Below are positions 4,191-53,113 of a stretch of DNA of 64,000 nt, one piece after another; positions within the stretch are counted from its first letter, which is position 1, and every line of letters starts with the position of its first letter. Origin of the DNA: Amphiura filiformis (Eukaryota); contig NC_092633.1 in assembly GCF_039555335.1 (NCBI RefSeq), forward strand, positions 21,100,334-21,164,333, in the 5' to 3' direction. A program made the translations under genes and the position numbers. The notes under the pieces are model-generated. The model saw only the letters and a list, made by a program, of their open reading frames with translations, was not told the DNA's origin and did no database searches.

Positions 4191-6001
4191 CAGACTTGAC
4201 ATAAGTATGGGATAATTCTTCACGAAGTGCAAGGACTAATCTGAAAGGGGTCTGCATAAACCGCACGGGTTAAATATTTCATATTGGGGTGTGTCGGGAG
4301 ATGGTGGTGTCAAATAATTTTTTTATAGAAAATGTGCTTTCCATGACTACATTATGGTGCTCATAATGTAGTGAATTAGCCTAAAACGGCGGATTTAAGG
4401 AGACTGAATTTGAGTGGGAGAATTTTTAAATTTAACAAAATGGCTCTTAAAAGTAGTACGTACTCAGAAAGTTCAATCATAGAAGAAATTGGAACCCCTA
4501 AGGGTTCTTGGCCTTGTCTCGTATATGGAACCTCAAGGTTTCTTCCAAGGAACAGCGCCATCTACGTCTGCTACCAATAGGAGGCAACAGACGAGAAAGG
4601 TCAAAGCTGTTAGTAACTGGTCATATATGTGCGGAAGGAAGTACTTGTCACAATCCCTGTTGAGTGTTTCAAGCTACCCCTCTTTCTTATCCAAATTGAT
4701 TCCTTTATGTGTATTCTTTTCCTGCTGATTTTAATGTCTTATTTTGCTTCATCTCATTCAATTTGAGAAAGTGCTGTGTTACAGCACGGAACGTCATTGA
4801 GGTATGTCAATATCACCTATTTTTTATTATTTGTAAATAATTTCTCCAAAGAACCTTTGTTGAAGAACCCTATCACAAAGGTTCTTTAACATGTTTATTG
4901 AAGTCTAAAGGTTCTCCAATTTTGTCCAGTATATGGAACCCTACGGTTCATCAAAGAACCTTCATGATATCATGATATGGGTTCTTTGAATAACCCTATC
5001 AAAAAGGTTCTTTGTTGAACCTTTAAAGGTTCTTCTAGTTTGTCCCCATATATTGCACCCTATGATTCTTCAAAAAACCTTTGCAATAAGGTTCTTTGAA
5101 GTATGGTGACACGTACTCTAGAAATTGTCCTTAAAAGTACGGTCTTAAAGGTGAACGGCCAGAAAATTTTATATATTTGCTTGAAAATATAAAATCCGTG
5201 AAAATTTTATATATTTGCTTGAAAATATAGAATCCGTGGCTATTTAAAAATAGCGTTTTCCCTGCGTTTCAGTCGTATATGTAATACACTAGGAACCCTT
5301 TTCAAGTAAATTAGGGGTTCCTTGTGGAACTCAAAAGCCATAAAGAATCGTATTTTCACTGCGAGAACCCCATTGAGACTTCTAGCCTAGAGGTTCTTCA
5401 AGCGCACATGGTTCTTAAACGAATCCTATATCATTTTGAAGAACCCTTGAAGAACCCTTTTTCTAAGAGTGTTTGAATGGCCCCTAGGGGCAAATGTTAT
5501 AAACTTACTGTGCACAAAGAAACACGTGAGTTCATTGGACAACCAGAAATCCGCGCAGTTGTTTTTGTACCGTAAGTTTATAACATTTGACTTTTGACGC
5601 CGAGTACGTACCACGTTTAGGAAAAATATTTTAAGCTCCTCCCATTTAAAAGAAAATTGCGCATTGCAAGTACATTTCAGCTCTGATGAAAGCCAAAAAG
5701 GAAATATCACCTTAAACTCCAATGAATTTGATAATAACAATAACAATGTTGGATTAAGTCCGAAATTGTATCCCCCACAAAGATCAAATTCATTCCTTTA
5801 AATCCGCCATTTTAGGCAAATGCACTACATTTTGAGCACCATAATGTAATCTCATGGGGAAACACAATTTCTATAAAACAATTATTTTATACCATCTCCC
5901 GACACACCCCAATTAATATTAAGTCCGTGCGGTTTATGCTGACCCCTTCCAGATTAGTCTTGGCACTTCGTGAAGAAATAGTCCATACAATGTCAAGTCT
6001 G
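4191..6001. mobile_element. Foldback-type non-autonomous DNA transposon with ~245-bp terminal inverted repeats. Termini begin CAGACTTGAC (hAT-like CAG start, unproven).
   Basis: Left arm 4191-4435 is the reverse complement of right arm 5757-6001. The interior carries reiterated ggttct/agaacc sub-repeats and a 2x40-bp tandem repeat at 5161-5240. It is absent from the paralogous site in macro-repeat copy 2 (~17300, aataaattatgtagtttctgttcaag). Confidence 0.7.
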
Positions 6002-6394
6002 TAATGTACTTTCCGTTCAGTTCAAAACGAAACATTCGAGACATAATATTCCCCACACATGTCGCATTAAAAAAAAAATAAACACGTACTAATGAACTAG
6101 CCCCTACCAGCTAAACACTAAACTGTGTTTCATGTCAAGAGAAACAAATCATATTTCAAGAGTTGAATTGCTAAGGAGAAAAACGTGTTTTTGTGATTTT
6201 GCAATTCCCTTCGATTTGATTAATTTTGACTTGGGTTAAAGTTTCCATGGATAGAAACTAAAATAATAAGTTTGATGCAAATTTTCAGTCTTCAGTTTTA
6301 TTTTATTATTTCTTTTATTTCTTGGATTTTATGGATGTAAGCAGTTTTGCAATTCAACAAAATAACCACTTCTCTAGAAACCACCTTTGCAGTA

Positions 6395-7055
6395 CAATTT
6401 GATTCCAGCTTTGACGTCTACTTTATGCTTCTTGATCAATGCCTTTAAAATCAAAAGGGAAAATTGAAACTTGAAAATTGAAAAATTGAAAATTGAAAAC
6501 TTTAATTGACAAATTCCCGAAATTTCCCGAAAGGAAAAATAGCGATATCTCAGTAAGGGAAGGTGAAATGATAGTCAAACAAGCACCACAATGTGTATTG
6601 TGACCGACGTAATAACTCAATTTGATTCCAGCTTTGACGTCTACTTTATGCATCTTGATCAATGCCTTTAAAATCAAAAGAAAAAATTGAAAAATCTCAT
6701 TTTCTTTTTTAATTACGATTTTTTAATTAAATTCGTGAAAATGCCATTTTCCGTCATTTCAATAATCCAACTTTTGTTCATTAATTAATTAGTAATTCTT
6801 ACAATTATAATGGCCAAAAAAGTTCATTTTGATTTTAAACGTTAATGAACATTAAATGCTATCATAAAACTTCAAAACATTATAAGAAAAAATATTTTCT
6901 CTAGATTTTAGACAACTTTAATTGACATTTTCCAGAAATTCCCGAAATTTCCCGAAAGGGAAATAGCGATATCTCAGTAAAGGAAGGTGGTATAAAAGTC
7001 AAATAAGTACCAAAATATGTATTTTGACCGCCGTAATAACTCATTTTGACCAAAA
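6395..7055 (+). repeat. Local duplication of a ~223-bp unit with (GAAAATT)n and a tttcccgaaatttcccgaaagg motif; private to macro-repeat copy 1
   Basis: 6395-6462 repeats at 6618-6685 (caatttgattccagctttgacgtctactttatgc). 6502-6630 matches 6917-7050. The block 6130-7095 is missing from copy 2, where 17450 directly abuts the homolog of 7100. Confidence 0.6.
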
Positions 7056-8589
7056 GTGGACGTAAGCTGTTTTGCAAGTCAACTCTTCATGTATCCTATC
7101 TATGGCGGGCCATGGCGGTCATAAAAAAATTAGGTGCAAAAGGAGACGCGATCTCAAAGACGAGCATAACTTTTTCAGTCTTCTTCATATTTTGTCGACA
7201 TTTCTGAAACATAAATGGTTTAAGGGAATTCCTCCAATTTATCAATCATTTTAAGCAATTTATCAACCATTTTGGCCCTTGCCGAATATCTGAAATTGAT
7301 GTGACCCATCCTACAACCATGTCAAATTCTGACTTTTTGTATATTTAAACATAACTGTGAATTATATACAAGCAGTAAATAAGCTTTAAATGGCACCAAA
7401 TTTGCAGTTCTGTACCATAAAACCTATTTAATATTTATGAAGATGTGCTACAATTTGCTAAGAGTTATTTAAGTGTTAGTGTGATTTAAATTCTTAGATA
7501 TAAATAACTACATTTATTCTATTACGACCATGAAGAGGGATTAACAAAAGTCAAGATTCAATTGTTTGCTTTGTTCCATTAACTCTATATTATATTTTCT
7601 TTTATCTTAAATTGGATTTCATTACAAAACTACTAGGTCTACCAACATCACACTTGAATACTCGGATTAAACGATAAGTGAATTAATTAATAGTCCTTAA
7701 TTATTATTGGTTTAAGAAAAACAGAACAAACACATATACATCTTATAAGAAGACGCTGAGAAACATAAGAAATACATGATTCAATTAACTGATTTGAATA
7801 GCAAATATGACGAAAAATGTACATTTCAGATGTCATTCTGTTTTGACGCTCATTCATAATATAGTCATAGTAGATAACCCGGAAGTTGCACCTGTTACTT
7901 ATAAATTCGCGTAAAGTTTTGTACAATAAAGCCTTTGCCATATTGTGCACACATCAAAGAAGAGAATTCTCTGCCACCTGGCCATTGTTTTGACGTGGAC
8001 TTCATTCCAATGTTCAACGCTGGAGAAAAATAATATATCGCTGTAGGACTAAAGTAAACATGTTGTAGAATAAGGATTATTGTAAAACCTCTAGTAGGGT
8101 AAATATTCCGCAAAGGTAAAAGAAAAGGAAAAAGGGACAAGAAATGTTATAAATGGACACGTAGACGAGACATGCAAAATACATAAGGAAACAAACAGGA
8201 AGGAATTTCAGACGCGGATTAAGAAGTAAACTTTAGGAGACACACGGATATACTAGGCTTGGTTTATTGTGTAATGGTAAATGAATGGATAGTGACAATG
8301 CAGATAGGCAGGTGTTATAATACAGTTCCCTGTTGATGTGTACATGTATTACAGAGGTTCATCCCATTATTTCAAATGGGGTTATTCCAGATCTTTGAGA
8401 TCCTGAAACTGGATATTTATATTTATGACCAAAAAACGTAGTGGAATTAATATCATAATATGTCATGGTTTGATATTTTGACACTAGAAAGTCATACAAT
8501 GTTAAGATTTATGTCATCTTTCTAAAGCTTCACTAAAGAATGTTGTTGATTTGCGTTCACTGGAAATAACCTCAATGTAGTTCCATTTT

Positions 8590-9160
8590 GTTTTATTTAT
8601 TGACCAAATAGGTTTTGTCGTTGTTGGAATATGTAACTATTTTCTCATGCTAAGCGTAATTTAACACGTTCTTGTATAAATAATGTTTCCACAGGTTTTA
8701 TTTTTATTGTTGGTAACATTGGGTGACATTTCCGCCGCTGTATTCCAAATCGAGTTTTATTCAATGACGATTAAAAACAAAATGACCTATGATCATATTC
8801 TTTCATGTTCAAGAAATGAAAGACGGTTTGATGTTGTAATAGGTTACATCTAAGGCTTGACGCAATCACTTCTGAAGAAAATCCGCTACTCTGTTTCAAT
8901 TAGGTACTACATTTATACATATTAAGGTGTTCGAAACTTCTTACACAACACTTATGTCACACTGCCCCCATCGTTATCGTCTCATCAAGTACTAAGTGAG
9001 TGCATGGGTGTATTGAGTTCAATGTTTTCGGCGGTCGAGATGATCAGTATTCAGATTCAAAAAGAGTTTAGCTGATGTCGATAATTACGTACATGTACTT
9101 ATACTAACCTTTGCTTTCTTCTGCCAAGTACCAGTTAGTGTGTATGAGATCCCTGTAATA
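8590..9160 (+). repeat. About 570-bp dispersed repeat (copy 1 of 3)
   Basis: Homologous to 24110-24660 and 30110-30640, for example ctcatgctaagcgtaatttaacacgttcttgtataaataatgtttcc and gtactaagtgagtgcatgggtgtattgagtt. Confidence 0.6.
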
Positions 9161-9187
9161 GGATCTTTATTATGTTAGGGATGAAAT

Positions 9188-9310
9188 CAAAACTCGTCCT
9201 GTGGTCGACGGCCGGTTCCGTCCGCTTTGATCCGGTTTCTGTTGTTCTAAACAATGGAGCGCGGTTCAACCGCTGATAACTGCCGGTCAACCGGCCGTCG
9301 AGTTTTGATT
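9188..9310. repeat. GC-rich hairpin insertion (short palindromic element) in an otherwise AT-rich repeat
   Basis: atcaaaactcgtcctgtggtcgacggccggttc at 9190-9222 is the reverse complement of caaccggccgtcgagttttgat at 9285-9306. It is absent from the paralogs at 24660 and 30640. Confidence 0.5.
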
Positions 9311-9859
9311 GTATCGCTAACAGATTGAAATTAGATTTGCAGCATTAAAATAATTTCATCTATTTTATCAACAATATTTTCTCTGAATAATTTCCTTCAA
9401 ACATTCATTTGGCACTTACGTTTTATAGATTTTAAGCAGCCTCAGTTTTGGTTAAACCAAAGAGAGGTTGATAAGCTATTATATCATATTTACCAAGAAA
9501 ACAATAAACTATTCATTCAATTCGTAAAGAGCAAGATGTAGTAAACTATCGGTATAAACGACTTTGTTTTTAGTAGTACTCAAAAGTCAGACTTCACGTG
9601 ATAAAAGTCATTGCACTAACCTCGTCTGCCACCTGGTAAAAATAGAAACTTATTGAATATATACATCATTTGATTTCCAGGGGGCATGGGATTTGTTGTG
9701 AAAAAATAACTTCGACTAATAGTGAGCCGAAACAAAATCGCTCCACTGATGAGAAAAAATATTTCGCCGCCGTAATCCCACCACTGAGACCTTTTTGGAA
9801 TGAGGAACCAATTTAGGTCATTCATATCGGCTATTACAAACTTCTTCAAAAGCGTGGAA

Positions 9860-11020
9860 ATATCAGAAAAGAGGTGGTGTTCTCAATTACACGTATTCAG
9901 GCCAGTAAATATGGTGAATCCAGAGATTTACTAACTAGTCATATCTCGGTTTAATACAGCAAAGAGTAAGACGCCCAGACCATCTCATTTTGCTAATTTC
10001 AATATTGCTGGTGTGTTTTAAATATTACTAATGCATGTCACCGCTATTACAGGCTTTAATATAATAGGTATGATATCGTCTGCGATCGATATAACAGTGT
10101 AATAACATTACATATTTTTTAGAATAACTAAAAACAACCTCTTTTTAGCTCCTGAAGTCTTGTAACATTTCCGCTGTCACAATGTTATAAAAATTAATTT
10201 GGCCAGAATGAAAATGCACTTAAAAGCAAAGTAATAAAAAACCTATTGAAACTTGAAAAATAGACTCTTGACGGAAATGCAAACTGTATGAAATTTTAAA
10301 CGTAATTGCCTTGGGGTGATATCAATTTCAATATCTATCTAGACGTGAAGCTATGTCCAGAGCAAGGTCTCGTGTAGATAACTGAATATCGTGTGGGCAG
10401 CACATAAAGCTTCAATTGCTAAGAGACGCATCGACTTAACATCGATTTCGTTTATGGTGTTACAAAGTGGCGTGGTTTGGTTGTGACTTGGCAATTGGAG
10501 CAATAACAAGCATATGCTATTGGCCTCTGGCTATGTCATCATGTCCTAGTTACAGATAACCAATTATACAGGCCTCAGGATGTCAACAAACTACTCAATA
10601 GCAAAATTAACACTAGCGAAACATTGAACACCTTTTACATGGTTCATCAATACTAAATATATGAGCAGAAAAGAATTACATGAACTTATTTTAATGTTGT
10701 AAAATCAATTCTACTTGTTGTTACGCTTTATGAAAGACTTCGTGTTTATATTCACTCACGTAAGCGACCAAAGGTTCTTGGTACGTCTCTGGGATACCAC
10801 TGCACCATATGAGTATAGATATGATAACTTACAGCACTAATGAAAATACTTGTGACATACTCAAAATAACATTTTACATCGAGCTTTTAGATGATGGTAT
10901 CCTCATTATGGAAATTGGTATCGACTCCTCTTCCCACAAGATGTTGATTTAATATGCAGGTTGCTTGGTTCTATGGCTAATAAAGCAGTTGAGGACCCAC
11001 TCAACTTATAATTTGTCCCT
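9860..11020 (+). repeat. About 1.2-kb interspersed repeat family, class unknown (copy in macro-repeat 1)
   Basis: Homologous to 24890-25620, 35120-36545 and 41051-41760. Shared strings include ggtgttctcaatt, cttgaaaaatagactcttgacg and ggctatgtcatcatgtcctagttacagataac. Confidence 0.6.
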
Positions 11021-11711: not shown

Positions 11712-12844
11712 GACGAATTGATACTATTCCTTACATTGTTTTATTACTTACGCGTTATTAAAGCAGTATGCTATATAGTAGAATTTGTTATCCATTCTTG
11801 TTTCAGTACTGCTGCTTCAAATATTTTTGTTGTGCAGATAACCGTATTATATATAATATATACATACAGGTATTTCTCACATCTAAGTTCATTATTAATC
11901 CATAATTACTTCCTGTGAAGCCAAATTTGACAATATGTATACAAGGAAAGAAAAAGATAGAGATTTAATGGAACATTAAGAAAAAAGACAGAGTTCAGCA
12001 ATACATTCCGAACACATGCTGAACACATAATAATCACATGTGCCTGAAACTATTTATATAATAGCTATGGACAAATTGTGGGATATTTTTGTCACCTTCT
12101 TGCAATGACCTTACTTAATAATAACTCCAAAAATATGTAAAACCAACCTGCAGAAAGAAGGGTTTTGTGATGATTAGATCTAAAAAAGTGCTACAAAATA
12201 TTGGTTTTGAAATTGGTTTTCGAAATATGTTTACAAAACATGTCATTAAGACCTCGTTTTGGTCTTCCTAGTAACCATTTTTGTCTGATTTGGATTAAGT
12301 GCATGAACATATTTCATTGATATACAGGCATCATTTACAGCGACTGCAATGTGCATTACCTCCTTCAAACATAAACTGTATCGTCATAGAAATAATGATT
12401 TAAAAATAATTTGTGTTGATCTTTCTTCCCAATGAACCTGACCTGCTTCATATGTACTCTCTATTTGGTATAGTTGTGACAAATCAATAGAGCAACAATA
12501 TGAGTACAAGAATAGTTCGTTTCGAATATCTGTTAGATAATCTACTGTATGTCTGCTTCTATTTCAAGAATTTGCAAGTTGAAGAAATTCACCTGTCAGT
12601 CAGGCCGCAAACTCGGTTGCATTTTGTATTAACCTTCTGCACTACTAAAGCAACTATGAAATTGAAAACTTCTCTTTAAGGATATCTTTATTTATGCATT
12701 ATGTAAAACAATTAATTAATCTTACAAATGTGGTTTAACGCGTATTATACTGACAAATACTGAGTGGTACCAGAAAATATCGCGTGGATTTTCAAAGAGG
12801 AATTTTTTGCTGTCAGTATGTACAGCTATACAAAGGACAGACAC

Positions 12845-12962
12845 ACGAACCTCTCTACAACCACCACCACATCACCACCTTCCAACACACCCCACACACA
12901 CCACACACACCCCCATCCCCACCCCCCCCACACACACACCCACACCCACCACATATTTCATA
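12845..12962. repeat. C/A-rich low-complexity patch (expanded version)
   Basis: ccaccaccacatcaccaccttccaacacaccccacacacaccacacacacccccatccccaccccccccacacacacacccacacccacc. The His/Pro/Thr-rich ORFs reported in the track here are translation artefacts of this patch. Confidence 0.7.
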
Positions 12963-13419
12963 CTACCACTCTTCTTTACCACGACTTTAAGTAACAACTT
13001 TAGTACTAGCATAGGCATTCCGTTCCCTGAACAACCGTGCGAAATGTCAACCTTCTCCCCCAAACACAAAATGCAAAGCTGAGACATTGCAGAGAACAAT
13101 GACATTGCTAAGAATTGTGTCCAGCTCTGATTGAAACACAATATCTAGCGTGTGAAGACACGATAAGAAGAAGAAAGTCAACAAACACAAAAACACAAGA
13201 CATTTTCTTATTCTTTGGTTTACACGAAAAGCAATAAGGAATCTTGTGTTGTAATGTTCACAAGGAATGTGGTCTAATAACAGGGATGAATAAGTTGACT
13301 AAGTTGAGGAAAAGAACACAAACTTGCTCATAAACAAGCAAAAAAACACCCAATGATCTTATCATCAGGCCATAAAATGGATTGATAGAGTAAATTAAGG
13401 TCAAGTTTCTTTCTATTTC

Positions 13420-14655
13420 AGTGTCATTATGCAAAAGCTTGTAAAATGATGATAAAAGTGACGCTTTCAGCGTTATTATGCAAAAGCTTACAAAGGTTAC
13501 AAAGTGATTCTAAAAGTAATGCTTTCAGGGTCATTATATAAAAGTTTACAAAGCGATGTTAAAAGTTATGCTTTCAGTGTAATTATGCAAATGGCTCCAA
13601 AGTGATGCTAAAATTATGCATTCAGTGTTATTATGCAAATGGTTACAACGAGATGCTAAAAGTGATGCTTTCAGTGTAATTATACAAACAAAGTGATGCT
13701 AAAGCTGATGCATTCAGTGTAAGGCTTACAACGTGATGCTAACAATGATGTTTCAGTGTCATTATTTAAACTTTGACAAAGTTATGCTGATGCTAAAAGT
13801 GATGCTTCCAGTGTCATTATGCAAATAGTTACAATGAGATGATACATTCGGTGTAATTATGCAATGGTTTACAACGTGATGCTTTCAGGGTCACTATATA
13901 AAAGGTTACAAAGTGATGCTAAAAGTGATGCTTTCACTGTAATTAGGCAAATAGTTACAAAGTGATACTAAAATGATGCTTTCAGTGTAACTATGCAAAG
14001 GTTTACAACGTGGTGTTAAAAATGATGTTTTCAGTGTCAATATTTGAAAGCTAAAAGTGATGCTTTCAGTGTCATTATGCAAAGGCTTACAACGTGATGC
14101 TAAGAATGATGTTATCAGTTTCATTATTTAAAAGCTTACAAAGTAATGCTGATGCTAAACCTAATGCTTCCAATGTCATTATGCAAATTGTTACAACTAG
14201 ATGCTAAAAATGATACATTCAACGTAATTATGCAAAGGCTTACAACGTGATGCCAAAAATTATGTTTCCAGTGTCATTATTTTAAAGCTTACAAAGTGAT
14301 GCTGATGCTAAAGGTGATGCTTCCAGTGTCACTATGCAAATGGTTACAAGCAGATGCTAAAGATGATACATTCAGTGTAATTATGCAAAGGTTTACAACG
14401 TGATGCTAAAAATGATGTTATCAGTTAACAGTTTCATTATTTAAAAGCTTTCAAAGTAATGATGATGCTAAACGTAATGCTTCCAATGTCATTATGCAAA
14501 TTGTTACAACTAGATGCTAAAAATGATACATTCAGTGTAATTATGCAAAGGTTTACAACGTGATGCTAAAATAATGTTTTCAGTTTCATTATTTAAAAGT
14601 TTACAAAGTAATGCTGATGCTAAACGTAATGCTTCCAATGTCATTATGCAAATTG
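13420..14655 (+). repeat. 49-bp satellite array (copy 2, part a), interrupted at its 3' end by a MITE
   Basis: Same unit as 2310-2950. The MITE 14659-15237 sits inside a repeat unit. Confidence 0.9.
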
Positions 14656-14658
14656 TTA

Positions 14659-15237
14659 GGGAGGACAGTTTTTATGGTCTACTTAGCTCAGCAATTCTTT
14701 GCGTCTTCGATAGCGCATTGTATCGGAGAGGTACCTGGCTTTTATCAAAGCCCAAAACCATAAAAGCATGTAGCCAACTCTGTCAGGCTCCGCTCAATTG
14801 TCCACCCCGCTCCGATACGACACGTTGACCAAATATCAATCGAATCTATTTTACGACCCTGCTTGAATTAACCCCTTGAAACCTAATTGCACCACTTTTA
14901 ATTTTTATGTATTGGTCAGGCACAAACAAAATTAAACTTACACACATTATTGACTTTCTATTGACCACAAAACACGACCCCAGACATGCTTATTTAATGA
15001 CCACTTGAGTAGTTGATTTAAGTGGGTCGTTATGTACTTACTGAACACAAAGGAAATTGATTATGGTTTTACCATCGACCGTGTTTATAATCCTGCTGCT
15101 CTGCTGAACGCTCCGATAGATATCAGCAAACCCGTATACTATTCGCTTGTTCCTATCGAACGCTCTAGCGTACATGAACCATTATTGAAGACAGCAAAGC
15201 ATTGCTGAGCTAAGTAGACCATAAAAACTGTCCTCCC
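14659..15237. mobile_element. PIF/Harbinger-like MITE (579 bp) inserted into the 49-bp satellite
   Basis: Perfect 37-bp TIR gggaggacagtttttatggtctacttagctcagcaat. It is flanked by TTA at 14656-58 and 15238-40. The satellite unit reads through uninterrupted if the element plus one TTA is removed (tgcaaattgTTAcaactagatg). Confidence 0.7.
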
Positions 15238-15240
15238 TTA

Positions 15241-15790
15241 CAACTAGATGATAAAAATGATACAGTCAGTGTAATTATGCAAAGGTTTACAAGTGATGCT
15301 AAAATAATGTTTTCAGTGTCATTGTTTGAAAGCTTACAAAGTGCGGCTAAAGGGATGCTTTCAGCATTGTTATGCAAAAGCTTACAAATGGGTTAAGTGG
15401 TGCTAAAAGTGATGCTTTCAGTGTCACAGTGCAAAGGCTTACAACGTGGTGCTAAAAATGAAGTTTCAGTGTCATTATTTAAAAGCTTACAAAGTAATGC
15501 TGATGCTAAACGTAATGCTTCCAATGTCATTATGCACATTGTTACAACTAGATGCTAAAAATGATACATTCAGTGTAATTATGCAAAGGTTTACAAAGTG
15601 ATGCTAAAAATGATGTTTTCAGTGGCATTGTTTTAAAGCTAAAAGTAATGCTTCCCGTGTCACTATGCAAACGGTTACAAAGTGATGCTGATCAAATTGA
15701 TGCTGAAAGTGCTACTTTCAGTGCAAAGTGATGCTTAAAGTGATGCTTTTAGTGTCATTGTGTAAAGGCTTACAAAAATTGACACCAAAA
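15241..15790 (+). repeat. 49-bp satellite array (copy 2, part b)
   Basis: The array continues after the MITE. It ends in a truncated copy of the array 3' flank (15790-15895, cttacaaaaattgacaccaaaaatagtcatgtgctgacaggtgccaatg). Confidence 0.85.
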
Positions 15791-15895
15791 ATAGTCATGT
15801 GCTGACAGGTGCCAATGAAACTGTAAGTCCGCTTTTTCACGCCTCGCCGAATATTGCCAAGTTAGACTACTAAGGCGGTATTCTTCCATTTTCAA

Positions 15896-16240
15896 GAACA
15901 AAGGTTACAAAATGATGCTAAAAGTGATGCTTTCAGCGTCATTATGCACAAGATTAAAAATTGATGTTAAAAATGGTGTTTTCTTTGTAATTGTGCAAAG
16001 GCTTATATACTAATTTTCAGTGTCATTATGCAAAAGCATACATATTGATGATAAAAGTGCAACTTTCAGTGTAATTATGCAAAAAGCTGGCAAAGTATTG
16101 CTAAAACTGATGCTTTCAGTGTCATTATGCAAAAGCTTACAAAGTGATGCTAAAAGTGATGCTTTCAGTGTCATTATGCAAAAGCTTACAAAGTGATGTT
16201 AAAAGTGATGTTTTCAGTGTCAATATATAAAGGCTTACAC
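15896..16240 (+). repeat. 49-bp satellite array (copy 2, part c), followed by the complete 3' flank
   Basis: A second array block follows the internal flank copy. This implies an internal array-plus-flank duplication in copy 2. Confidence 0.85.
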
Positions 16241-17726
16241 AAATTGATACCACAAGTCATCATGAGCTGACAGGTGTTAATGAAATAGTAAGCTCGCAAC
16301 CTCATACAAAGATCAAAAGGCAATAATACATGTATGATTGAATATTTTAGTGCAAGCAACCGTTCAAATTTCCTTGTCGTGTCTCGCCGAATATTGCCAT
16401 TAGACTCATATAAGGCGATATTCTTACAGGAGTTCAATTCAACGTTTATTTTCCTTAATGTCTGTAAAATACTTCACCATTTTTTGTGATTAATAACAAG
16501 CAGTACAAATAATACTTCATTTGGAAGCACTGTCTGAATTGACAAGGACAAGGACGAAAATTTAACGTTACGCTGCCTTAATGATTCCCCATACAAGGAT
16601 GCGGTCAGTAGCCCGATATAGTTTTCTTTCTCTTTGACCTTGGAAAACGGCTCAAGCTACATGCGTTATATAAAAAACGATATTAAATAACCGTGATAAT
16701 GTTAATTATAATTTTAAGTATAAACATGTTTAGTGAAAGGGTTACGATTTTACCTTAACGACTCTTTTTAGATTTTTTTTATTTTTATTTTTTATTTGAA
16801 CTGTATACTTCTTGAAGATGTTTTATTTATTTTATATTTTACCGCCTCTTTTCCACGTGTGTGGATTTATTATTTAAGGTTTTTTTAAAAGGGTTTCATT
16901 TTTGCCCAACACAAAATAGCCATTGCGTTATTTTAAATCCACCGGGGCCAATAGTCCATGGTGCTTAACCAATATTTTGAATGGATCAACATCATATAAC
17001 GTTGTGTATACATCATGCTTTCAGCTTCCTACTGCTCCGACGTATGTCTGTATTTTTACAGCAAAGTCTCGGATTAAATTCAGTTAAAAATAACATACCT
17101 ACAATATGCACTTCTCGTGTGTTTTGTTTCGTTATGTTATTTTGTATATTCCTCCATACTCTTGGAGCTACTCAGCCCCAGGAATGCATCTGATCAATAT
17201 TTTAAACCTCATTTGTTAGTATCCACTGAGAAGGCCTCCGGACATGCCTTAAGCATGCAAGCAAACTTACAAGTGGTTTTCAAAGTAACTAATAATACTC
17301 TGTATACAATAAATTATGTAGTTTCTGTTCAAGTTAAAACAAAGTCGACACTCAGACATTCCCCACACATGTCGCTTTTTTAATACGTGCTAACGAAGTA
17401 ATCCCTACAATGAATCAGCTAAGCACTGTATTTTCAAAATCCTAAGTTCTCTAAGGCGGTCATAAGAAAAAATACGTACAAAGGGAGACGCGATCCCAAC
17501 GACGGACGGAGCCTGTCAGTTTTCTTCATATTTTGTCGACATTACTGAAATGAAAATGGTTTAAGAGCATTCCCCTAATTTATCAACCATTTTTAAGCAA
17601 TCGCAATGCAATGATCCGTGCCGGATCTCAGACATTAATATGACCATCCTACTACAACCCTGGACATGTCAACATTTTTGTATAATTTAAACATAACTGT
17701 GAATTACCAACAATAAATAACCTTAA

Positions 17727-18270
17727 GGGATCTGGAATGAGCGTTTTGAGCGTTTCGACAATATTTTTGTGGGACATGAGAGCACATCAGACATATCGAA
17801 TTGCATTCTGAATACGAAGAATGTCTTTCTGATATCAATTTTTTTTTTTTGAAATTCACGATATAAAACAAATTTTATGACAAATTATTAAATTTGATAT
17901 TTTTCACATTTTTGATATACATGTATAACAGTCCTCGAAGTAAATTTTATAAATCTAATGATATATTCTTAAAGTGTATGTAGCTAGGAGGTAAAGCCGA
18001 CGATCAATTGAAAATTTTGACCTTTCATCCCACCTACATACACTTTAAGTATAAATCATCAGATTTATAAAGTTTACTTCGAGTGCTGTTTCAACAAAAA
18101 TATCAATTTTCAATCATTTGCCATAAAATGTGTATTACATTGCGAATTTCAAAAAATCAAAATTATTTGATATCAGAAGGACATTCTTCGTATTCAGAAT
18201 GCAATTCGATATGTCTGATGTGCTCTAATGTCCCACAATAAATACTGTCTAAACGTTCATACCCCACCCC
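17727..18270. mobile_element. TTAA-flanked palindromic MITE (544 bp) with ~70-bp perfect subterminal inverted repeats and GGG...CCC termini
   Basis: TTAA at 17723-26 and 18271-74. 17762-17830 is the reverse complement of 18170-18237. The empty paralogous site at ~7388 (gcttTAAAtggcaccaaat) has a single TTAA. Confidence 0.7.
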
Positions 18271-19023
18271 TTAAGAATGGCACCAAATTTGCAGTTTTGT
18301 ACCATAAAACCTATAGTATATTTATGAGGATATGCTACAATTTGCTAAGGGTTTTTTAAGTGGTAATGTAATTTCAATTCTGAGGAATAAAGCAATACAT
18401 TTCTCCAATTACGCAGTCCTGAATAGGGATTAACAAAAGTCAAGATTCAATTGTGTGCTTTGTATTCACATGAGTATGACAAACCATTAACTCTAGATAT
18501 TCAATTACAAATATTTTACCTTATGATATGGTCGGTTCTTTTATCTTAAATTGTCTTCATCACAAAATTAGGCCTGCCTGCATCGCAATAAGTGAATTAT
18601 TTACTAATCCTTAATCATTATTGGTTTAAGAAACACAGACCAAACACATATAAATCTTATAAGAAAACCCTGAGAAATACAAGAAATATATACTAACTGT
18701 TTTGAATAGTAGATAAGACGAAAATAAACCAAGATTTGAGTTGTCATTGTGTTTCAATGCTCATTTATAAAGTCATAGTTGATAAGTCTGAAGTTGCACC
18801 TGTTCGTTACAAATTCGCGTAGAATTGTGTACAATAAACCCTTTGCTATTGTGCACACATCAAAGAAAAAGGTTCTGTGCAACTTTTTTTTTATCTTTCC
18901 ACAGAGCACACAAGGTGCCCTGTGTATTTATTTATCAAACATGATCTCAGTTATACATAGTTATAAAAGCCACAATTATACAGAATAATAACAATAATAT
19001 TACATTGATGAAAGTAACTGTTA

Positions 19024-19713
19024 TTACATATTTATAGAGTTCCATCTTTTATTCCATTCATACATTTTACCTTTATTGTTTGCAATGTGTTTTTCAGTCT
19101 CGGCGACAGTATTAAGCATACCTTTAAAACCTTGTATGTCCAGCTTATTTTTATTACATCTTGCATTATAAATAAACTTTTTCCCCTGAAGAACAACAAA
19201 ATTATAATGACAATAATCAACATCTAATATGCCCAACAGAACATCCTTCATGGTAAGAGTAACTCTTTTTTTAAAGATATTATCTTGAACCTTCTTCCAA
19301 AATTGAGCAGAAGTACCACATTGCCAAAATAAATGTGGGATATTTTCTAACTCCTGATTACAAAAAGTACAAAGATTTGAATCAACATAACCATATTTAA
19401 ATAGATTTTCATTTATACCTATAATTCTATGCAGAATTTTGAATTGAAAATACCTAAGTTTGGTTGATAGGGAGGAAGACAAGGAAATCCTGTAAATATC
19501 GTTCCAATTTAAATTCATATCATCAAAAAAGACAGCCCATTTGGCCTCGGCTTTGGGCGCAGTTAAACAACTTGTCAACGCAAATTTTGTGAACCAATTT
19601 GCAGACCTTCTTAGAGGAACAGATAAGAGCAAGCATATCATCATGATCATTCTGAACAGTTCCCAAGTCTTCCCCCCTCTCGACACTTCTGATCCATACA
19701 TTTGGAATGGCAT
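19024..19713 (-). pseudogene. L1-like ORF2 C-terminal region with Cys-rich motif and stop codon (copy B)
   Basis: ORF ends 19024. The ~130-bp 3'UTR then runs to the poly(A) at 18892. Confidence 0.7.
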
Positions 19714-21009
19714 AGATTAGAGCAAAATATTCCAGAAAGTTACATTGTAAATTATACTTGGTCTTCAAGATATCAAGGGGAAGAAAACTATCATCTTCAT
19801 TTAAAATATCAGAAATAAATTTAATACCTTTCTCATGCCAGACTTTTTTGTAAACAGTGTTTTGGGCGATAACAATAGATGAATTATTCCATAATATTTG
19901 ATGTCTAAAATGACTTGAAGGAGAATCATAAGTAATTGTACACCAAGCGTTGAGAATTTCACCAATAAACACATTCTTAATAAGCTTAATACATTTCTCC
20001 TCTGGTTTAGTGTTAAAAAAACAAAAAAGATTACCACCAATCTGTTTCATATAAAACATATAAAAACATTTCCATTTACCATTGTTGTTCACATCCAAGA
20101 GACGTTTAACCCAAGCCACTTTAAGCCCATTAATAACTGAGGGAATGTGAACCATCTTGAGGCCCCCTTTCTCATAGTCACCAATGATGGACTTTCTGCT
20201 GAGCTTATCTGGTTTTCCTGACCAAATAAATTTAAATATTATCGAGTCAACCTCCTTCAAAAAATTATCAGGTGGTTTAGGTAAAACAGAAAACAGAAAA
20301 ATTAATTGAGAAAGACCCAAGGATTTAACAATTGTAATTTTACCAATTGGACTTAAATCTCTCATCGACCAAATTCGCAAGATTTCCTTGAGTTTTTTGG
20401 AACGAAATTTAATTCAAAAATATTGCTCAGATCAGAACTAAAAACTACACCCAAAAGACGAACAGGATTGGCAGTAAAATGTAAATCATCATTGTTTAAA
20501 TCAGGAGGATTATCCTTAAACAAACCTAAAGGGAGTAACTCAGATTTATCCAAGTTAATTTTCAAGCCAGAATAAATTTGGAAAGTCTCAAGAATGTGAA
20601 CAACTCTGTGAAGGAGCCAACATCCTTTAAGTAAATAGTGGTATCATCCGCATAAGCACTAATAATAATTTCAGTATTCTCAACCATGATACCTTTAACA
20701 CTATTATCATTTCTGATGGCCAAATTCAAAATCTCACTACTAATTATATAAAGCAGCGGACTAAGTGGACAACCTTGACGAAGTCCACAAAACAATTAAA
20801 AAAATCAGAAGCATGTCCATTGTTCATAACACACGAGGTAATATCTGTATAGAAAACTTTCACCCAATTAATCAAATCATCACCAAAATTAAACAATTTT
20901 AATGCCCTAAACACAAAGGACCATTCAAGTTTGTCGAATGCCTTTTCAAAATCAATTAAAAACATAATACCAACAAAATTATTTTCTGTGCAACCTGATC
21001 ATTGGGTTT

Positions 21010-22714
21010 GAAGTACCACATTGCCAAAATAAATGTGGGATATTTTCTAACTCCTGATTACAAAAAGTACAAAGATTTGAATCAACATAACCATATTTAA
21101 ATAGATTTTCATTTATACCTATAATTCTATGCAGAATTTTGAATTGAAAATACCTAAGTTTGGTTGATAGGGAGGAAGACAAGGGAATCCTGTAAATATC
21201 GTTCCAATTTAAATTCATATCATCAAAAAAGACAGCCCATTTGGCCTCGGCTTTGGGCGTCTTAAACAACTTGTCAACGCAAATTTTGTGAACCAATTTG
21301 CAGACCTTCTTAGAGGAACAGATAAGAGCAAGCATATCATCATGATCATTCTGAACAGTTCCCAAGTCTTCCCCCCTCTCGACACTTCTGATCCATACAT
21401 TTGGAATGGCATAGATTAGAGCAAAATATTCCAGAAAGTTACATTGTAAATTATACTTGGTCTTCAAGATATCAAGGGGAAGAAAACTATCATCTTCATT
21501 TAAAATATCAGAAATAAATTTAATACCTTTCTCATGCCAGACTTTTTTGTAAACAGTGTTTTGGGCGATAACAATAGATGAATTATTCCATAATATTTGA
21601 TGTCTAAAATGACTTGAAGGAGAATCATAAGTAATTGTACACCAAGCGTTGAGAATTTCACCAATAAACACATTCTTAATATTAAAGCTTAATACATTTC
21701 TCCTCTGGTTTAGGGTTACATTCCCAAAAAAGATTACCACCAATCTGTTTCATATAAAACATATAAAAACATTTCCATTTACCATTGTTGTTCACATCCA
21801 AGAGACGTTTAACCCAAGCCACTTTAAGCCCATTAATAACTGAGGGAATGTGAACCATCTTGAGGCCCCCTTTCTCATAGTCACCAATGATGGACTTTCT
21901 GCTGAGCTTATCTGGTTTTCCTGACCAAATAAATTTAAATATTATCGAGTCAACCTCCTTCAAAAAATTATCAGGTGGTTTAGGTAAAACAGAAAACAGA
22001 AAAATTAATTGAGAAAGACCCAAGGATTTAACAATTGTAATTTTACCAATTGGACTTAAATCTCTCATCGACCAAATTCGCAAGATTTCCTTGAGTTTTT
22101 TGGAACGAAATTTAATTCAAAAATATTGCTCAGATCAGAACTAAAAACTACACCCAAAAGACGAACAGGATTGGCAGTAAAATGTAAATCATCATTGTTT
22201 AAATCAGGAGGATTATCCTTAAACAAACCTAAAGGGAGTAACTCAGATTTATCCAAGTTAATTTTCAAGCCAGAATAAATTTGGAAAGTCTCAAGAATGT
22301 GAACAACTCTGTGAAGGGAGCCAACATCCTTTAAGTAAATAGTGGTATCATCCGCATAAGCACTAATAATAATTTCAGTATTCTCAACCATGATACCTTT
22401 AACACTATTATCATTTCTGATGGCCAAATTCAAAATCTCACTACTAATTATATAAAGCAGCGGACTAAGTGGACAACCTTGACGAAGTCCACAAAACAAT
22501 TTTAAAAAATCAGAAGCATGTCCATTGTTCATAACACACGAGGTAATATCTGTATAGAAAACTTTCACCCAATTAATCAAATCATCACCAAAATTAAACA
22601 ATTTTAATGCCCTAAACACAAAGGACCATTCAAGTTTGTCGAATGCCTTTTCAAAATCAATTAAAAACATAATACCAACAAAATTATTTTCTGTGCAACC
22701 TGACCATTGGGTTT
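21010..22714 (-). repeat. Tandem duplicate of 19309-21009 (LINE 5' part plus TSD plus 15 bp of upstream flank)
   Basis: The junction at 20983-21011 reads ttctgtgcaacctgatcattgggttt|gaagtaccac. That is the TSD plus flank joined to internal LINE sequence (= 19309), with a 2-bp 'ga' microhomology. The two units are near-identical. Confidence 0.7.
22065..22670 (-). pseudogene. L1-like ORF2 reverse-transcriptase fragment (copy A)
   Basis: 201-aa ORF with FIDFEKAFD, RQGCPLSPLLY and YADDTTIY. The equivalent region in copy B (20362-20965) is broken into three frames by homopolymer indels. Confidence 0.8.
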
Positions 22715-22759
22715 GACGTGGACTTCATTCCAAATGCTCCAAGCTGGAGTAAAATAATA

Positions 22760-23220
22760 TATCGCCGTGGATAAGACAATGCAGACATAAACATGGTTTA
22801 TGTTCAAGATCAACAGGTTAACATCAACATAAATAATGCTACAAACTAAAAGCTAGATAAGTTGAAAGACTTCAAATATTATGGAGCAATGGATGGATAG
22901 TACAGATCATGATGTCAAACATATAAGACAGCAGCTTGGCGAGCATGAAACAACTTAAGCAAGATCTGGAAGTCTGCTTGACCTACCAAAGAAAACCTGC
23001 GTGTCTTCAGTACAACAGTGGCGTCTGTGTTAATGGATGTTAAGCCAGGACCACGAATCCAAAACTATCCAAGATCTGGATGCCTCTTACTATGAATGCC
23101 TAGAAATAACAATAACATGATAACGTACACGGGAAACAGCACATAAGTAGCAAAGAGCTGCACGGAGACCTTCCAAACCTCTCTGAAGATCCGAGCAAGA
23201 ACTACACTAGAACTGGCTAG
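22760..23220 (+). pseudogene. Decayed 3' end of a CR1/L2-type LINE ORF2 (older element into which the L1 and a MITE inserted)
   Basis: Homologous to 29513-29900, with stops and frameshifts. The LINE-tail homology continues at 23886-24100, after the MITE 23222-23885. Confidence 0.5.
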
Positions 23221-23221
23221 T

Positions 23222-23885
23222 CCGTACTTTAAATAAGTTGTATTTTGGGTTTTGGTTTAGGTAAAAACGTTTTAATAACATTAAAATGTCGGGTTATTAT
23301 AAAGGTCATGAAATCGTTTTAACACGTTTTGTATGAAAACACACTACAACAATATTTTTAAAATGTTTTTGAAATGTCATTGTAAACTATTTTTGCAAAC
23401 AATTTTAGCCAAATATTTTGTCAACACTTGAATAACATTATGTTAAAATATGTGCACCCAGCAAACACAGAAATGTTCTTAAAATGTTTTTTACAAAACG
23501 TTTTAATAACATTTAAATGTCGGGTTAAAGGTCGTGAAAACATTTTAAAAACGTTATTGTAAATATGTTGGGCAAACATTTTTTGCAAAATATTTTTCAA
23601 CCCCAAAATAACATTCTGTTTAGAATGATTTGTACCAAGTTTTCAAAAATGTTTTTGGAATGTTATTAAAACGTTTTTATACCCTTTATATAACCCGACA
23701 TTTAAATGTTTTCTGTAAAACATTTTTGTTTGCTGTGCAGTAAATTACCAACAAATGTTATTTAATGTTATGAAAATGTTTTATACCATTAATGTAGCCT
23801 TTATATAACCCGACATTTAAACGTTTTCTGACAACCTTTTGCGAATGATGTCGAAAACGTTTTGTGTTTGCTGGGTTCCAGCCGG
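23222..23885. mobile_element. MITE with internal palindromes, lacking its 5' TIR, inserted in a LINE tail
   Basis: Homologous to 62560-63360. The 3' TIR aaaacgttttgtgtttgctggg ends at 23885. Internal inverted repeats of the type ataacccgacattt / aaatgtcgggttat. Confidence 0.6.
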
Positions 23886-24109
23886 TACTGGTCACGACAC
23901 TGGGTACATGGCTAGAACTACACGTTTTGCTGTACACTGCTTCAGGAGTAAGAGCGAAGATGTCGACAAATGTAACTGATCAACTGGACACCCAGGCATG
24001 GAGGCAGAAATCCTGGTAGACCATTGTGGACCGCCTAATAACTATGTATATGAGTTCAGCATTCAATCATTCGTTATACGGCCAATTTCTGCTGACAATA
24101 ATTTGTTAA

Positions 24110-24660
24110 GTTACACCATTTTCTCATGCTAGGCGTAAATTAATTTAACACGTTCTTGTATAAATAATGTTTCAACGAATTTTTTTTATTGTCGGTAACA
24201 TTGGGTGACATTTCCGCCGCTGTATTACAGATCAAGTTTCATTTAATGACGACTAAAAACCAAATAACCTGTGATCCTATTCTTTCATGTTCAAGTAGTA
24301 AAAGGCGCTTTGATATTTTGATAGGTTACACCTCAGGCTTGAATTAAGCACTTTTGAAGAAAAACCGCTACTCTGTTTCAATTAGGTACTATATTTATAC
24401 ATATTGGGGTGTTCAAAAACTTCTTACATAACACTTATGTCACATTGACCTCATCGTTATCGTCTCATCAAGTACCAAGTGAGTGTATGGGTGTATTGAG
24501 TTTAAATGTTTTCGACGGACAAGATGGTCAATATTCAGATACATAAAGAGAGAGTTTAGCTTATATGTCAATAATTACGTACATGTTATACTTTACTACA
24601 CCTTGCTTTTTTGCCAATACCATTTAGTGTGTATGAGATGATAAGAACACTTTTATGTAA
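24110..24660 (+). repeat. About 570-bp dispersed repeat (copy 2 of 3)
   Basis: See 8590-9160. Confidence 0.6.
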
Positions 24661-24889
24661 GAGATTGGAATTAGATTAAATTTCATCTATTTTATCAACA
24701 ATATTTTCTTTGAATAATTTCCTTCAAACATTCATTTGGTACTTAAATCTTAAGTAGCCTCAATTTTGGTTAAACCAAAGACAGTAGCTCGTATATGAGA
24801 TGAAATATTTACCGTAAATATTTCAGGAAAACAATAAACTATTAAATAAAATTCGATTCGAATTATTTGTCACGGTGTACTGTGTGGAG

Positions 24890-25974: not shown

Positions 25975-26050
25975 ATCTACAACCACAAGCATATAAACAT
26001 CCCACCTATCACAACTCCCCCCCCACACACACACCCCCACACACCATCAC
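25975..26050. repeat. C/A-rich low-complexity patch (copy 3)
   Basis: cccacctatcacaactccccccccacacacacacccccacacaccatcactaccacaaa. Confidence 0.7.
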
Positions 26051-30010: not shown

Positions 30011-30109
30011 TAAGCAAGTAAGCAAGTTATTGCTAAGTGACTCTTCAAAATTGAAGTCAAAATAACAAATTGACTAGAGATTAGTTCTCAATCAATTTGT
30101 TATACAGAT

Positions 30110-53020: not shown

Positions 53021-53113
<93 letters not shown>

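Follow-up and report, generated by a model that had tools for sequence, protein, structure and literature searches.

The classical hypervariable minisatellites of humans are GC-rich. In general, minisatellites are tandem repeats with units of 10–100 bp (PMC5615363), and those of animals (VNTR) are the closest described counterparts of a repeat that we analyzed in a 64-kb stretch of the genome of the brittle star Amphiura filiformis (the window). Shared with them are a 49-bp unit arranged head-to-tail, arrays of 0.07 to 2.2 kb in a non-satellite context, internal variant monomers, and a large change in length between related copies that is consistent with slippage, unequal exchange and conversion. 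In contrast, the length variation described here lies between paralogous copies of one haplotype and not between alleles, and the 49-bp unit is not GC-rich.

In satellite higher-order repeats such as primate alpha satellite, diverged neighboring monomers are amplified jointly (definition: PMC5615363), as is a 153-bp unit in one of the arrays of the window. However, this unit is present in only ∼6–7 higher-order copies, its monomers are of 49 bp rather than nucleosome-sized, and of the three paralogous arrays only one has it. A sharply delimited patch of 93–99% identity within paralogues that are otherwise 81–88% identical recalls the interlocus gene conversion known from tandem segmental duplicates, although here the patch was added beside the recipient's flank, which was not replaced but left in truncated form. 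Finally, Tourist-like MITEs of the PIF/Harbinger superfamily share with a 579-bp insert in the longest array the small size, the lack of coding capacity, the foldback, the long terminal inverted repeats starting with GGG and the TTA duplication.

Our analysis indicates that the locus is probably a locus-bound (within the window), non-coding 49-bp minisatellite in a tandemly duplicated segment of ∼11–13 kb, which was later modified by array turnover, insertion of the MITE and exchange between copies. Taken alone this is of little importance, since expansion, contraction, higher-order units, transposon uptake and ectopic conversion are textbook repeat biology. It nevertheless provides a worked example in which three paralogous copies of known relative age display three states of an array (1.5, 14, and 44 units).

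Arrays of a 49-bp unit within a macro-repeat

Tandem Repeats Finder (TRF) returned the dominant period of 49 that had been proposed in an earlier note on this DNA. It did so at 2307–2955 (13.6 copies), 13416–14615 (24.8), 15395–15629 (4.7), and 16015–16239 (4.6). An iterated nhmmer profile run over the 64-kb window yielded 63 monomer matches, all on the + strand and in register, with 14 in macro-repeat copy 1, 47 in copy 2, and 2 in copy 3. By length, the arrays amount to 13.6, 44.0 (25.3 + 11.3 + 7.4), and 1.5 unit-equivalents, respectively, in good agreement with the ∼13, ∼45, and ∼1.5 units counted before. The repeat length per array ranges from 74 bp to 2.2 kb, the array region of copy 2 spans positions 13417–16259, and the longest unbroken run in the window comprises 26 monomers (Table 1). 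In the remaining ∼58 kb of the window the monomer profile gave no credible match to further arrays. The 19-nt core TTCAGTGTMATTATGCAAA, with at most one mismatch, occurs 21 times, always on the + strand and within the three loci, and was not encountered in 100 shuffles.

Table 1. Positions of the arrays and associated features in the window, with the evidence for each.
Feature	Start	End	Strand	Description and evidence
Head-to-tail macro-repeat with arrays	1057	36223	+	self-BLAST, K2P
Copy-1 array	2308	2975	+	14 generic "G"-type monomers, degenerate terminal monomer; TRF, nhmmer, monomer list
Copy-1 partner of exchange tract (array tail and 3' flank)	2657	3200	+	sliding identity
Copy-2 proximal array	13417	14658	+	26 monomers; TRF, nhmmer, type assignment
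MITE-like insertion	14659	15237		579 bp, 41% GC; terminal repeats, foldback, junctions
Copy-2 middle array	15238	15792	+	A/B/C units, then degenerate; nhmmer, type assignment; TRF period 152 at 15237–15652
Truncated 3' flank (c2a)	15793	15895	+	alignment, distances
Copy-2 distal array (c2d)	15896	16259	+	8 monomers of copy-1 type; alignment, type assignment
Distal full 3' flank (c2b)	16260	16470	+	98.7% identical to copy-1 flank 2956–3200
Copy-3 array	26232	26305	+	1.5 units, first unit with a single GTGATGC sub-repeat; nhmmer, monomer list

The consensus of the unit is TTCAGTGTCATTATGCAAAAGCTTACAAAGTGATGCTAAAAGTGATGCT. Its GC content of 34.7% is practically that of the window (34.8%), so that the unit, which had been described as AT-rich, is no richer in AT than its surroundings. 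Likewise, the conserved cores reported before barely rise above the rest of the unit, as nearly all 49 positions are 70–99% conserved among the monomers. The identity from monomer to monomer is ∼70%. The copy-1 array contains an old internal duplication of ∼200 bp, corresponding to four monomers (2307–2741 versus 2507–2931 at 76% in self-BLAST), while the copy-3 array may be a proto-repeat that never expanded or the remainder of an array that collapsed.

The unit falls into the range of 10–100 bp, is repeated head-to-tail, and forms short arrays amid unique or low-copy macro-repeat sequence. Unit length and array size therefore define a minisatellite, and the term satellite used earlier is too generous. 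It is very unlikely that the arrays are local outposts, be they seeds or remnants, of a genome-wide, e.g., pericentromeric, satellite family. Short dispersed euchromatic arrays of true satellites are known in many animals (PMC5615363), and a higher-order organization, as found in copy 2, is typical of satellites. However, the arrays are short with diverged monomers, they have syntenic flanks and are surrounded by non-satellite sequence, the unit is in the minisatellite range, and only one paralogous copy possesses the higher-order unit. In addition, no brittle-star or echinoderm satellite of this kind was found described in the literature searched. The core and a two-core tandem pattern had no match in JGI metagenome contigs, a result that is uninformative for an echinoderm, and neither the 49-bp repeat nor the MITE is present in the one related ENA contig inspected (a 72% LINE relative). 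Since no described brittle-star satellite was found, the consensus could seed an entry in a repeat library. Moreover, the locus could serve as a VNTR marker and help to judge assembly quality in a genome that consists of 59% repeats.

The arrays are embedded in a macro-repeat whose copies extend over ∼1057–10994 (copy 1), ∼12290–25635 (copy 2), and ∼25624–36223 (copy 3), with an extra copy of the end block at 41052–41866; further macro-repeat copies may be located before position 1. Copy 2 is interrupted by a LINE at ∼19.0–22.7 kb. A LINE ORF in the window is identical in 173 of 176 aa (98%) to an Amphiura filiformis protein, and a zf-RVT domain is carried by the LINE. A nearby tandem duplication of 1.7 kb is 99.5% identical. 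The macro-repeat copies diverge by K2P distances of 0.12–0.20, copies 1 and 2 being slightly nearer to each other than to copy 3. With the published neutral rate of 1.885e-9 per bp per year (PMC11310086), we infer that the duplications may be roughly 30–50 My old.

As proposed before, the arrays occupy the same position in each macro-repeat copy in spite of their very different sizes. The flanks of copies 1 and 2 align on both sides, the 5' flank with 84% identity, and on the 3' side the alignment of copy 3 starts right where the array ends (CATGTGCTGACAGGTG) and is resumed at 26375–26613. The earlier claim of orthologous flanks on both sides of every copy holds to this extent, but fails for ∼170 bp adjoining the copy-3 array on its 5' side, which are unaligned; colinear blocks are found only further upstream (25627–25749 and 25954–26045).

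The shared flanks could alternatively be the arms of a non-autonomous transposable element that carries the 49-bp array as its central tandem-repeat region. We consider this quite unlikely, even though the literature documents well both transposons with internal tandem repeats and satellites that arose from MITE-like elements (PMC5615363), the genome has experienced a recent burst of DNA transposons, at 10–15 Ma, besides its high repeat content (PMC11310086), the 5' homology of copy 3 ends close to the array, and the 3' flank includes a short motif, GAATATTGCC...GGCGATATTC, that could form a hairpin. With the MITE-like and Helentron-associated elements of bivalves and Drosophila (DINE-1), the locus has in common a short-unit tandem array that adjoins recognizably conserved sequence on both sides, in a marine invertebrate genome rich in DNA transposons. 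In contrast to these elements, no terminal structures were found around the arrays of the window, and the flanks continue as the macro-repeat, in which homology between copies runs colinearly for ∼10 kb on both sides in self-BLAST without stopping near the array. Furthermore, the inverted repeats around the arrays measure only 14–17 nt at 76–86% complementarity, which is the level expected by chance, each macro-repeat copy has one array with none elsewhere in the 64 kb, and the divergence of the 3' flank follows that of the macro-repeat. A Helitron-like end was also considered for the 10-bp hairpin in the 3' flank and rejected, as a hairpin of this size is expected by chance (a rough estimate) and nothing else fits.

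Higher-order unit and MITE-like insertion in the copy-2 array

The region 13420–16240 does not form a continuous array but is interrupted by a foreign element of 579 bp (14659–15237), which had been overlooked before, and by a flank fragment of 103 bp. Moreover, the actual mode of expansion of copy 2 is a higher-order unit that the earlier note had missed. From ∼13981 onward, the monomers of the proximal array are ordered A (49 bp), B (55 bp), and C (49 bp), giving units of 153 bp, and TRF accordingly reports a period of 153 with 86% matches. Among copy-2 monomers 15–25, identity reaches 0.86 at lag 3 and 0.90 at lag 6, versus 0.67–0.69 at other lags, i.e., monomers three apart are far more alike than neighbors, as is expected of a higher-order organization. 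The ∼6–7 higher-order copies are 86–96% identical, the youngest units differing by K ≈ 0.04, while A, B, and C are ∼68% identical to one another. The B and C types, and likewise the strings specific to them, are restricted to 13752–15568, and the A-B-C unit is absent from the copy-1 array. Its restriction to one paralogous copy indicates that homogenization has been local and not family-wide.

The last C monomer of the proximal array is cut at model position 24 by the 579-bp element, and the middle array takes up the interrupted monomer at model position 22, ending with a degenerate monomer at 15748–15792. The element begins and ends with terminal inverted repeats of ∼44 nt with one mismatch, starting with GGGAGGACAGTTTTTATGGTCTACTTAGCTCAGCAAT, and weaker pairing extends to ∼54 nt. 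It folds back on itself (z = –9.8) and contains no ORF of at least 90 aa. The target-site duplication TTA is present on both sides; at the filled junctions (14652 and 15232), ATTGTTA adjoins GGGAGG and CCTCCC adjoins TTACAACTAG. Three intact paralogous empty sites, ATTGTTACAACTAG, each with a single TTA, were found at 14187, 14500, and 15538, and their existence confirms the insertion. One copy of the element is present in the window.

A TWA target-site duplication is a hallmark of the PIF/Harbinger superfamily. Together with the terminal inverted repeats and the small non-coding body, the 3-bp duplication of this type makes the insert a Tourist/PIF-Harbinger-like MITE by its sequence features. 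An alternative reading as a 2-bp (TA) duplication of the Tc1/mariner type is just as compatible with the empty site, at the cost of termini that are asymmetric by one base. The insertion can be dated against the higher-order copies.

Coding potential, structure, and candidate motifs

The 49-bp consensus has stops in every frame, and the six-frame ORFs of the macro-repeat revealed nothing protein-like. No Pfam family was detected in the ORFs flanking the arrays of copies 1 to 3, domains being confined to the LINE ORFs, and the substitutions between paralogues showed no signal of codon phase in 40 comparisons (minimum uncorrected p = 0.024). No Rfam family matched across the 64-kb window at gathering thresholds. 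A hairpin or cruciform formed by the unit was rejected, as the dimer folds worse than its shuffles (z = +1.84). A scan for bacterial promoters and terminators gave an excess of sigma-70-like hits, but this is due to a single weak match that recurs from monomer to monomer and has no bearing on an animal genome. Judged by the absence of such signals, the arrays are most likely non-coding, neutral, and without function.

The unit does contain candidate motifs, namely ATTATGCAAA, which we take to resemble a bZIP/C/EBP site, and, in C-type monomers, ATGCAAAT, presumably a POU octamer. The arrays might thus be clusters of functional cis-elements whose copy number tunes a nearby gene or non-coding transcript. 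The conservation of nearly every unit position across monomers and the recurrence of the exact octamer in C-type monomers would agree with such a role. However, recent amplification alone yields conservation between monomers without selection, the number of units varies from 1.5 to 44 among paralogues, the array tolerates both the MITE and the flank fragment, and the macro-repeat yielded neither a gene nor a Pfam domain or coding signal. A regulatory function is accordingly highly improbable.

In a wider form, it is unlikely that the unit belongs to an undescribed brittle-star family that either was dispersed by a mobile element or has long arrays at other sites, or that the arrays are copy-number-variable clusters of bZIP/POU-like motifs. 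If either reading were true, the locus would be a dated record of the birth of a repeat family, leading from a 1.5-unit proto-repeat through a monomeric to a higher-order array, together with transposon capture and conversion.

Probable exchange between copies 1 and 2 and proposed history of the locus

The truncated flank copy, second array, and full flank that had been noticed in copy 2 are real. Both the copy-1 flank and the distal flank of copy 2 contain ∼80 bp that the truncated flank lacks. The K2P distance of the truncated flank is 0.173 to the full flank, which lies 345 bp downstream, and 0.182 to the copy-1 flank, whereas the full flank differs from that of copy 1, located 13 kb away, by only 0.013. 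The stretch from 15896 to ∼16470 is 92–99% identical to copy 1; in a sliding analysis, its identity to the copy-1 partner is 93–99%, compared with 78–88% for the neighboring macro-repeat (K2P of 0.15–0.18 for the adjacent sequence). Past ∼16500 the identity drops to 81–89%, marking the right end of the exchange tract.

The monomers of the distal array are positionally orthologous to copy-1 monomers 8–14, plus one extra unit. Identities are 0.94 for copy-1 monomer 11 and distal monomer 4, 0.98 for monomer 13 and distal monomers 6/7, and 0.98 for monomer 14 and distal monomer 8. The rare variant TTCTTTGTAATT occurs twice in copy 1, one of these occurrences lying outside the exchange tract, and once in the distal array, while it is lacking in the rest of copy 2. 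Within the tract, the array tail (K = 0.081) is more diverged than the flank (K = 0.013), a gap whose explanation would require two nested events or, alternatively, a higher rate of change within the array.

This arrangement had been put forward as direct evidence of unequal exchange. Unequal or ectopic exchange is indeed the right class of mechanism, but not a recent event within the copy-2 array, as the truncated flank is diverged at the level of paralogues (K ≈ 0.17–0.18). Since, at the same time, the distal part is nearly identical to copy 1, the order of array, flank, array, and flank in copy 2 is better explained by conversion or exchange of a non-allelic kind between copies 1 and 2. The evidence thus favors templated repair or non-allelic gene conversion involving these two copies, the truncated fragment probably being copy 2's native flank. 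The addition of the patch beside this flank implies that one junction was non-homologous or formed at microhomology; this would be expected of templated insertion or break-induced repair rather than of a classical two-ended conversion. A transfer from copy 1 to copy 2 is mildly favored. The distances agree just as well with an old duplication within copy 2 and a later, recent conversion in which copy 1 received sequence from copy 2.

We propose that the 49-bp minisatellite was inherited along with the segment of ∼11–13 kb when the latter was duplicated in tandem. After the duplication, the paralogous arrays would have evolved separately by replication slippage and by unequal sister-chromatid or intra-array exchange, which together with conversion are the standard mechanisms for tandem repeats (PMC5615363), leading to ∼14 generic monomers in copy 1, 1.5 in copy 3, and ∼44 in copy 2. 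The growth of copy 2 would be due mainly to repeated amplification of the three-monomer A-B-C unit, after which the Tourist/PIF-Harbinger-like MITE would have entered one C monomer, duplicating TTA. Separately, ∼570 bp, comprising the last ∼7 monomers and ∼240 bp of 3' flank, may have been exchanged between the first two copies, either in a non-allelic gene conversion or in the templated repair of a break. The left junction would lie at 15895/15896 within the 3' flank native to copy 2, where a few bases of microhomology may have been involved, while the right end would fade out in homologous flank, producing the succession of array, truncated flank, array, and full flank.

It is extremely improbable that mis-joined reads in the assembly gave rise to the MITE, to the flank fragment, or to the lengths of the arrays. 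Although tandem repeats, such as this one of 2.8 kb, are prone to mis-assembly and the nearby 99.5%-identical duplication is of a kind that assemblers sometimes create, the MITE has a clean target-site duplication, and the monomer interrupted by it resumes in register. Likewise, the difference of 17% between the two flank copies implies that they are not duplicated reads or haplotypes and argues against a collapse, and the monomers are diverged enough (∼70–90%) for unique placement by long reads.

Beyond the exchange tract, a second, weaker patch of high identity between copies 1 and 2 was observed at 3745–4065 and 16990–17306 (K = 0.074).

The 49-bp unit and its arrays

Tandem Repeats Finder returned a period of 49 at 2307-2955 (13.6 copies), 13416-14615 (24.8 copies) and, likewise, 15395-15629 and 16015-16239, and this period was dominant at all four intervals. 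An nhmmer profile search, iterated from the consensus, gave 63 monomer matches in the window, all on the plus strand and confined to the three arrays, one in each macro-repeat copy; outside them, a single minus-strand match was at chance level (E=0.86). Allowing up to one mismatch, a 19-nt core occurred 21 times, compared to 0 in shuffles. By length, the arrays of copies 1, 2 and 3 hold 13.6, 44.0 (25.3+11.3+7.4) and 1.5 unit-equivalents. Therefore, the period, coordinates and unit counts that the earlier note had read from the sequence are right.

The consensus, TTCAGTGTCATTATGCAAAAGCTTACAAAGTGATGCTAAAAGTGATGCT, holds a ~12-bp internal sub-repeat (AAAGTGATGCT, twice) and is conserved to 70-99% across monomers at nearly all positions. 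Its GC content equals that of the window (34.7 and 34.8%), and the same degenerate terminal monomer closes every array. Judged by unit length and array size, the repeat would be a minisatellite rather than a classical satellite. A literature search turned up no brittle-star satellite on record, so this family probably has no name yet; the kind of repeat is thoroughly known. Less probably, the array could belong to a genome-wide satellite; metagenome scans gave no match to the 49-bp repeat and are uninformative here, and both the repeat and the MITE of copy 2 are absent from one related contig.

Features of the macro-repeat region
Feature	Position	Strand	Evidence or content
Macro-repeat copy 1	~1057-10994		self-comparison
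Copy-1 array monomers	2308-2975	+	14 nhmmer matches
Macro-repeat copy 2	~12290-25635		self-comparison; LINE-interrupted
Copy-2 array monomers	13417-16259	+	47 nhmmer matches
Candidate MITE	14659-15237		579-bp insert
Truncated flank	15793-15895
Distal full 3' flank	16260-16470
Animal-type LINE remnant	19024-22670	-	RVT_1, zf-RVT
Macro-repeat copy 3	~25624-36223		self-comparison
Copy-3 array monomers	26233-26305	+	2 nhmmer matches
Animal-type LINE remnant	37046-40131	-	RVT_1, Exo_endo_phos
Extra copy of macro-repeat terminal block	41052-41866		self-comparison

The macro-repeat and its flanks

Self-comparison of the window showed the macro-repeat to be colinear and head-to-tail. Its paralogues differ by K2P 0.12-0.20, with copy 3 slightly more distant from copies 1 and 2 than these are from each other; at the neutral rate applied for Amphiura filiformis (1.885e-9 per bp per year; PMC11310086), they would be roughly 33-53 My old. 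Substitutions between paralogues lack codon phase, no Pfam domain was found in the ORFs flanking the arrays, there was no Rfam match, and the macro-repeat behaves as non-coding DNA.

Orthologous flanks had been claimed for every copy. This holds for copies 1 and 2, whose alignment extends to either side of the array, and for the 3' side of copy 3, which aligns at the array boundary (CATGTGCTGACAGGTG) and then anew from 26375. However, ~170 bp directly 5' of the 1.5 units of copy 3 are unalignable, and 5' synteny consists of colinear blocks farther upstream. A transposon-borne array is disfavoured, since homology runs kilobases past the array, which is not bracketed by termini.

A CA/CCAC-rich low-complexity tract at 12890-12953 (copy 2) and ~25990-26050 (copy 3), ~400 and ~200 bp upstream of the respective array, is a further synteny marker. 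Copy 3 carries local duplications (32788-33248 and 34018-34482, 85% identity; 35256-35559 and 36232-36545, ~70%), by which the macro-repeat has continued to rearrange internally.

Amplification, insertion and probable exchange in copy 2

A period of ~153 was found by Tandem Repeats Finder at 14050-14658 and 15237-15652, with 86% matches versus 66-71% at period 49. At about 13981-15617, three monomer types follow in A-B-C order: A (49 bp), B (55 bp, with an additional GATGCT) and C (49 bp, containing GCAAATTGTTACAACTAGATGC). At lags 3 and 6, monomer identity reached 0.86 and 0.90, respectively, compared to 0.67-0.69 at other lags, with K≈0.04 among higher-order copies 1, 3 and 4. Since B- and C-specific strings are absent from copy 1 and from the distal copy-2 array, copy 2 owes most of its size to amplification of the 153-bp trimer after the macro-duplication.

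The interval 13420-16240, described as a 49-bp array, does have that period, but it is split by an overlooked 579-bp stretch of unrelated sequence with a higher GC content (41%). This insert occurs once in the window, has near-perfect terminal inverted repeats of ~44 nt and forms a nearly complete foldback (z=-9.8). The cut monomer ends at profile position 24 and picks up at 22; the empty site ATTGTTACAACTAG is intact in three sister monomers (14187, 14500, 15538), and the filled site runs from ATTGTTA through the insert (GGGAGG...CCTCCC) to TTACAACTAG. The insert is a textbook MITE insertion, whose putative TTA target duplication points to the PIF/Harbinger (Tourist-like) group, and it has the structural hallmarks of a Tourist-like MITE; alternatively, the duplication may be TA, with a terminus asymmetric by one base. 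Because the MITE lies in the fourth trimer and is missing from the sister trimers, it probably arrived after the amplification.

An internal duplication of array and flank in copy 2 had been taken as direct evidence of unequal exchange. Truncated flank, array and full flank are indeed present, but they form a mosaic. The truncated flank differs by K2P 0.182 from the copy-1 flank and by 0.173 from the full flank that follows downstream, on par with the macro-repeat paralogues, whereas the distal full flank differs from the copy-1 flank by only 0.013. Sliding identity between 2640-3200 and 15896-16470 is 93-99% and drops to 81-89% past about 3230/16500, and the 5' flanks of copies 1 and 2 share 78-92% (84% overall). 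All eight monomers of the distal array belong to the copy-1 type; they pair one to one with copy-1 monomers 8-14 (identity up to 0.98), plus one extra unit. Copy 1 has two instances of the rare variant TTCTTTGTAATT, one of them outside the tract; in copy 2, the variant is present in the distal array and absent elsewhere. Over the short stretch that can be aligned to copy 3, the truncated and copy-1-type flanks show separate sets of derived changes. The clean target duplication and the 17% divergence of the flank copies make an assembly artefact unlikely.

On the simplest reading, 13417-15895 would be copy 2's own array with a stump of its own flank, and 15896-~16470 a copy-1-type patch acquired by non-allelic conversion or templated repair, its left junction formed non-homologously or by microhomology and its right end homologously. 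The distances fit equally well with the reverse history, in which copy 2 underwent an old internal duplication and later, in a recent event, converted copy 1; copy 1 is mildly favoured as donor. Under either history, the recent event would be an exchange across 13 kb, from one macro-repeat copy to another, rather than slippage inside a single array. Identity is raised in a second patch (3745-4065 and 16990-17306; K2P 0.074 versus 0.15-0.18 around it), which suggests that such exchange or conversion recurs. The mosaic is reminiscent of interlocus gene conversion between segmentally duplicated regions, except that the patch lies beside the recipient's flank instead of replacing it.

Slippage or unequal exchange would shift array copy number, neighbouring monomers would be co-amplified into higher-order units, and paralogous arrays would exchange sequence by conversion, which together constitute neutral tandem-repeat turnover (PMC5615363). 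All features seen match its predictions, and the array shows higher-order organisation in miniature. Since the array also varies 30-fold in size and accommodates both a transposon and a flank fragment, and the fold of the unit is nothing special, it is quite likely a non-functional minisatellite, locus-bound within the 64-kb window. An unlikely reading as a regulatory array, with unit motifs as putative binding sites, would draw on motif resemblances such as that of ATGCAAAT in C monomers. This exact POU-octamer string recurs in C-type monomers at 14181, 14334, 14494 and 14646 (and at 13585, 13633 and 13819), probably by coincidence.

Other repeats in the window

The Amphiura filiformis genome (1.57 Gb, 59.3% repeats, 36.67% GC) experienced a DNA-transposon burst at 10-15 Ma (PMC11310086). 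The minus-strand LINE at 36900-40200 is nearly intact, with an endonuclease ORF (38410-40131) and a reverse-transcriptase ORF (37046-38434) separated by one frameshift; its GC content is ~44%, compared to a background of 35%, and the reverse-transcriptase ORF is identical to a RefSeq protein of the brittle star Amphiura filiformis at 173/176 amino acids, which assigns the window to this species or a very close relative. Within the minus-strand remnant that breaks copy 2 (RVT_1, zf-RVT), two neighbouring segments of 1.7 kb (19310-21011 and 21010-22716) share 99.5% identity (K2P 0.005), owing either to tandem duplication in the very recent past or to misassembly.

Copy 2 also contains a foldback element of ~480 bp (17764-18241; arms 17764-17994 and 18023-18241, 85-93% complementarity), probably another MITE or foldback family, with related sequence at 53575-53907 and 56236-56454. 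Outside the macro-repeat, a local ~1.2-kb duplication (54463-55623 and 56509-57646) shows 87% identity at ~2 kb spacing. A dispersed repeat (23311-23875 and 62786-63357, 87% identity) includes a ~184-bp tandem repeat (62834-63163). Long microsatellites comprise (ATT)39 at 53021-53137, (GAA)21 at 63731-63793 and a T-rich run of 43 at 46157-46199, which adjoins RT-like ORFs (45796-46369) and may be the poly-A tail of a minus-strand LINE.
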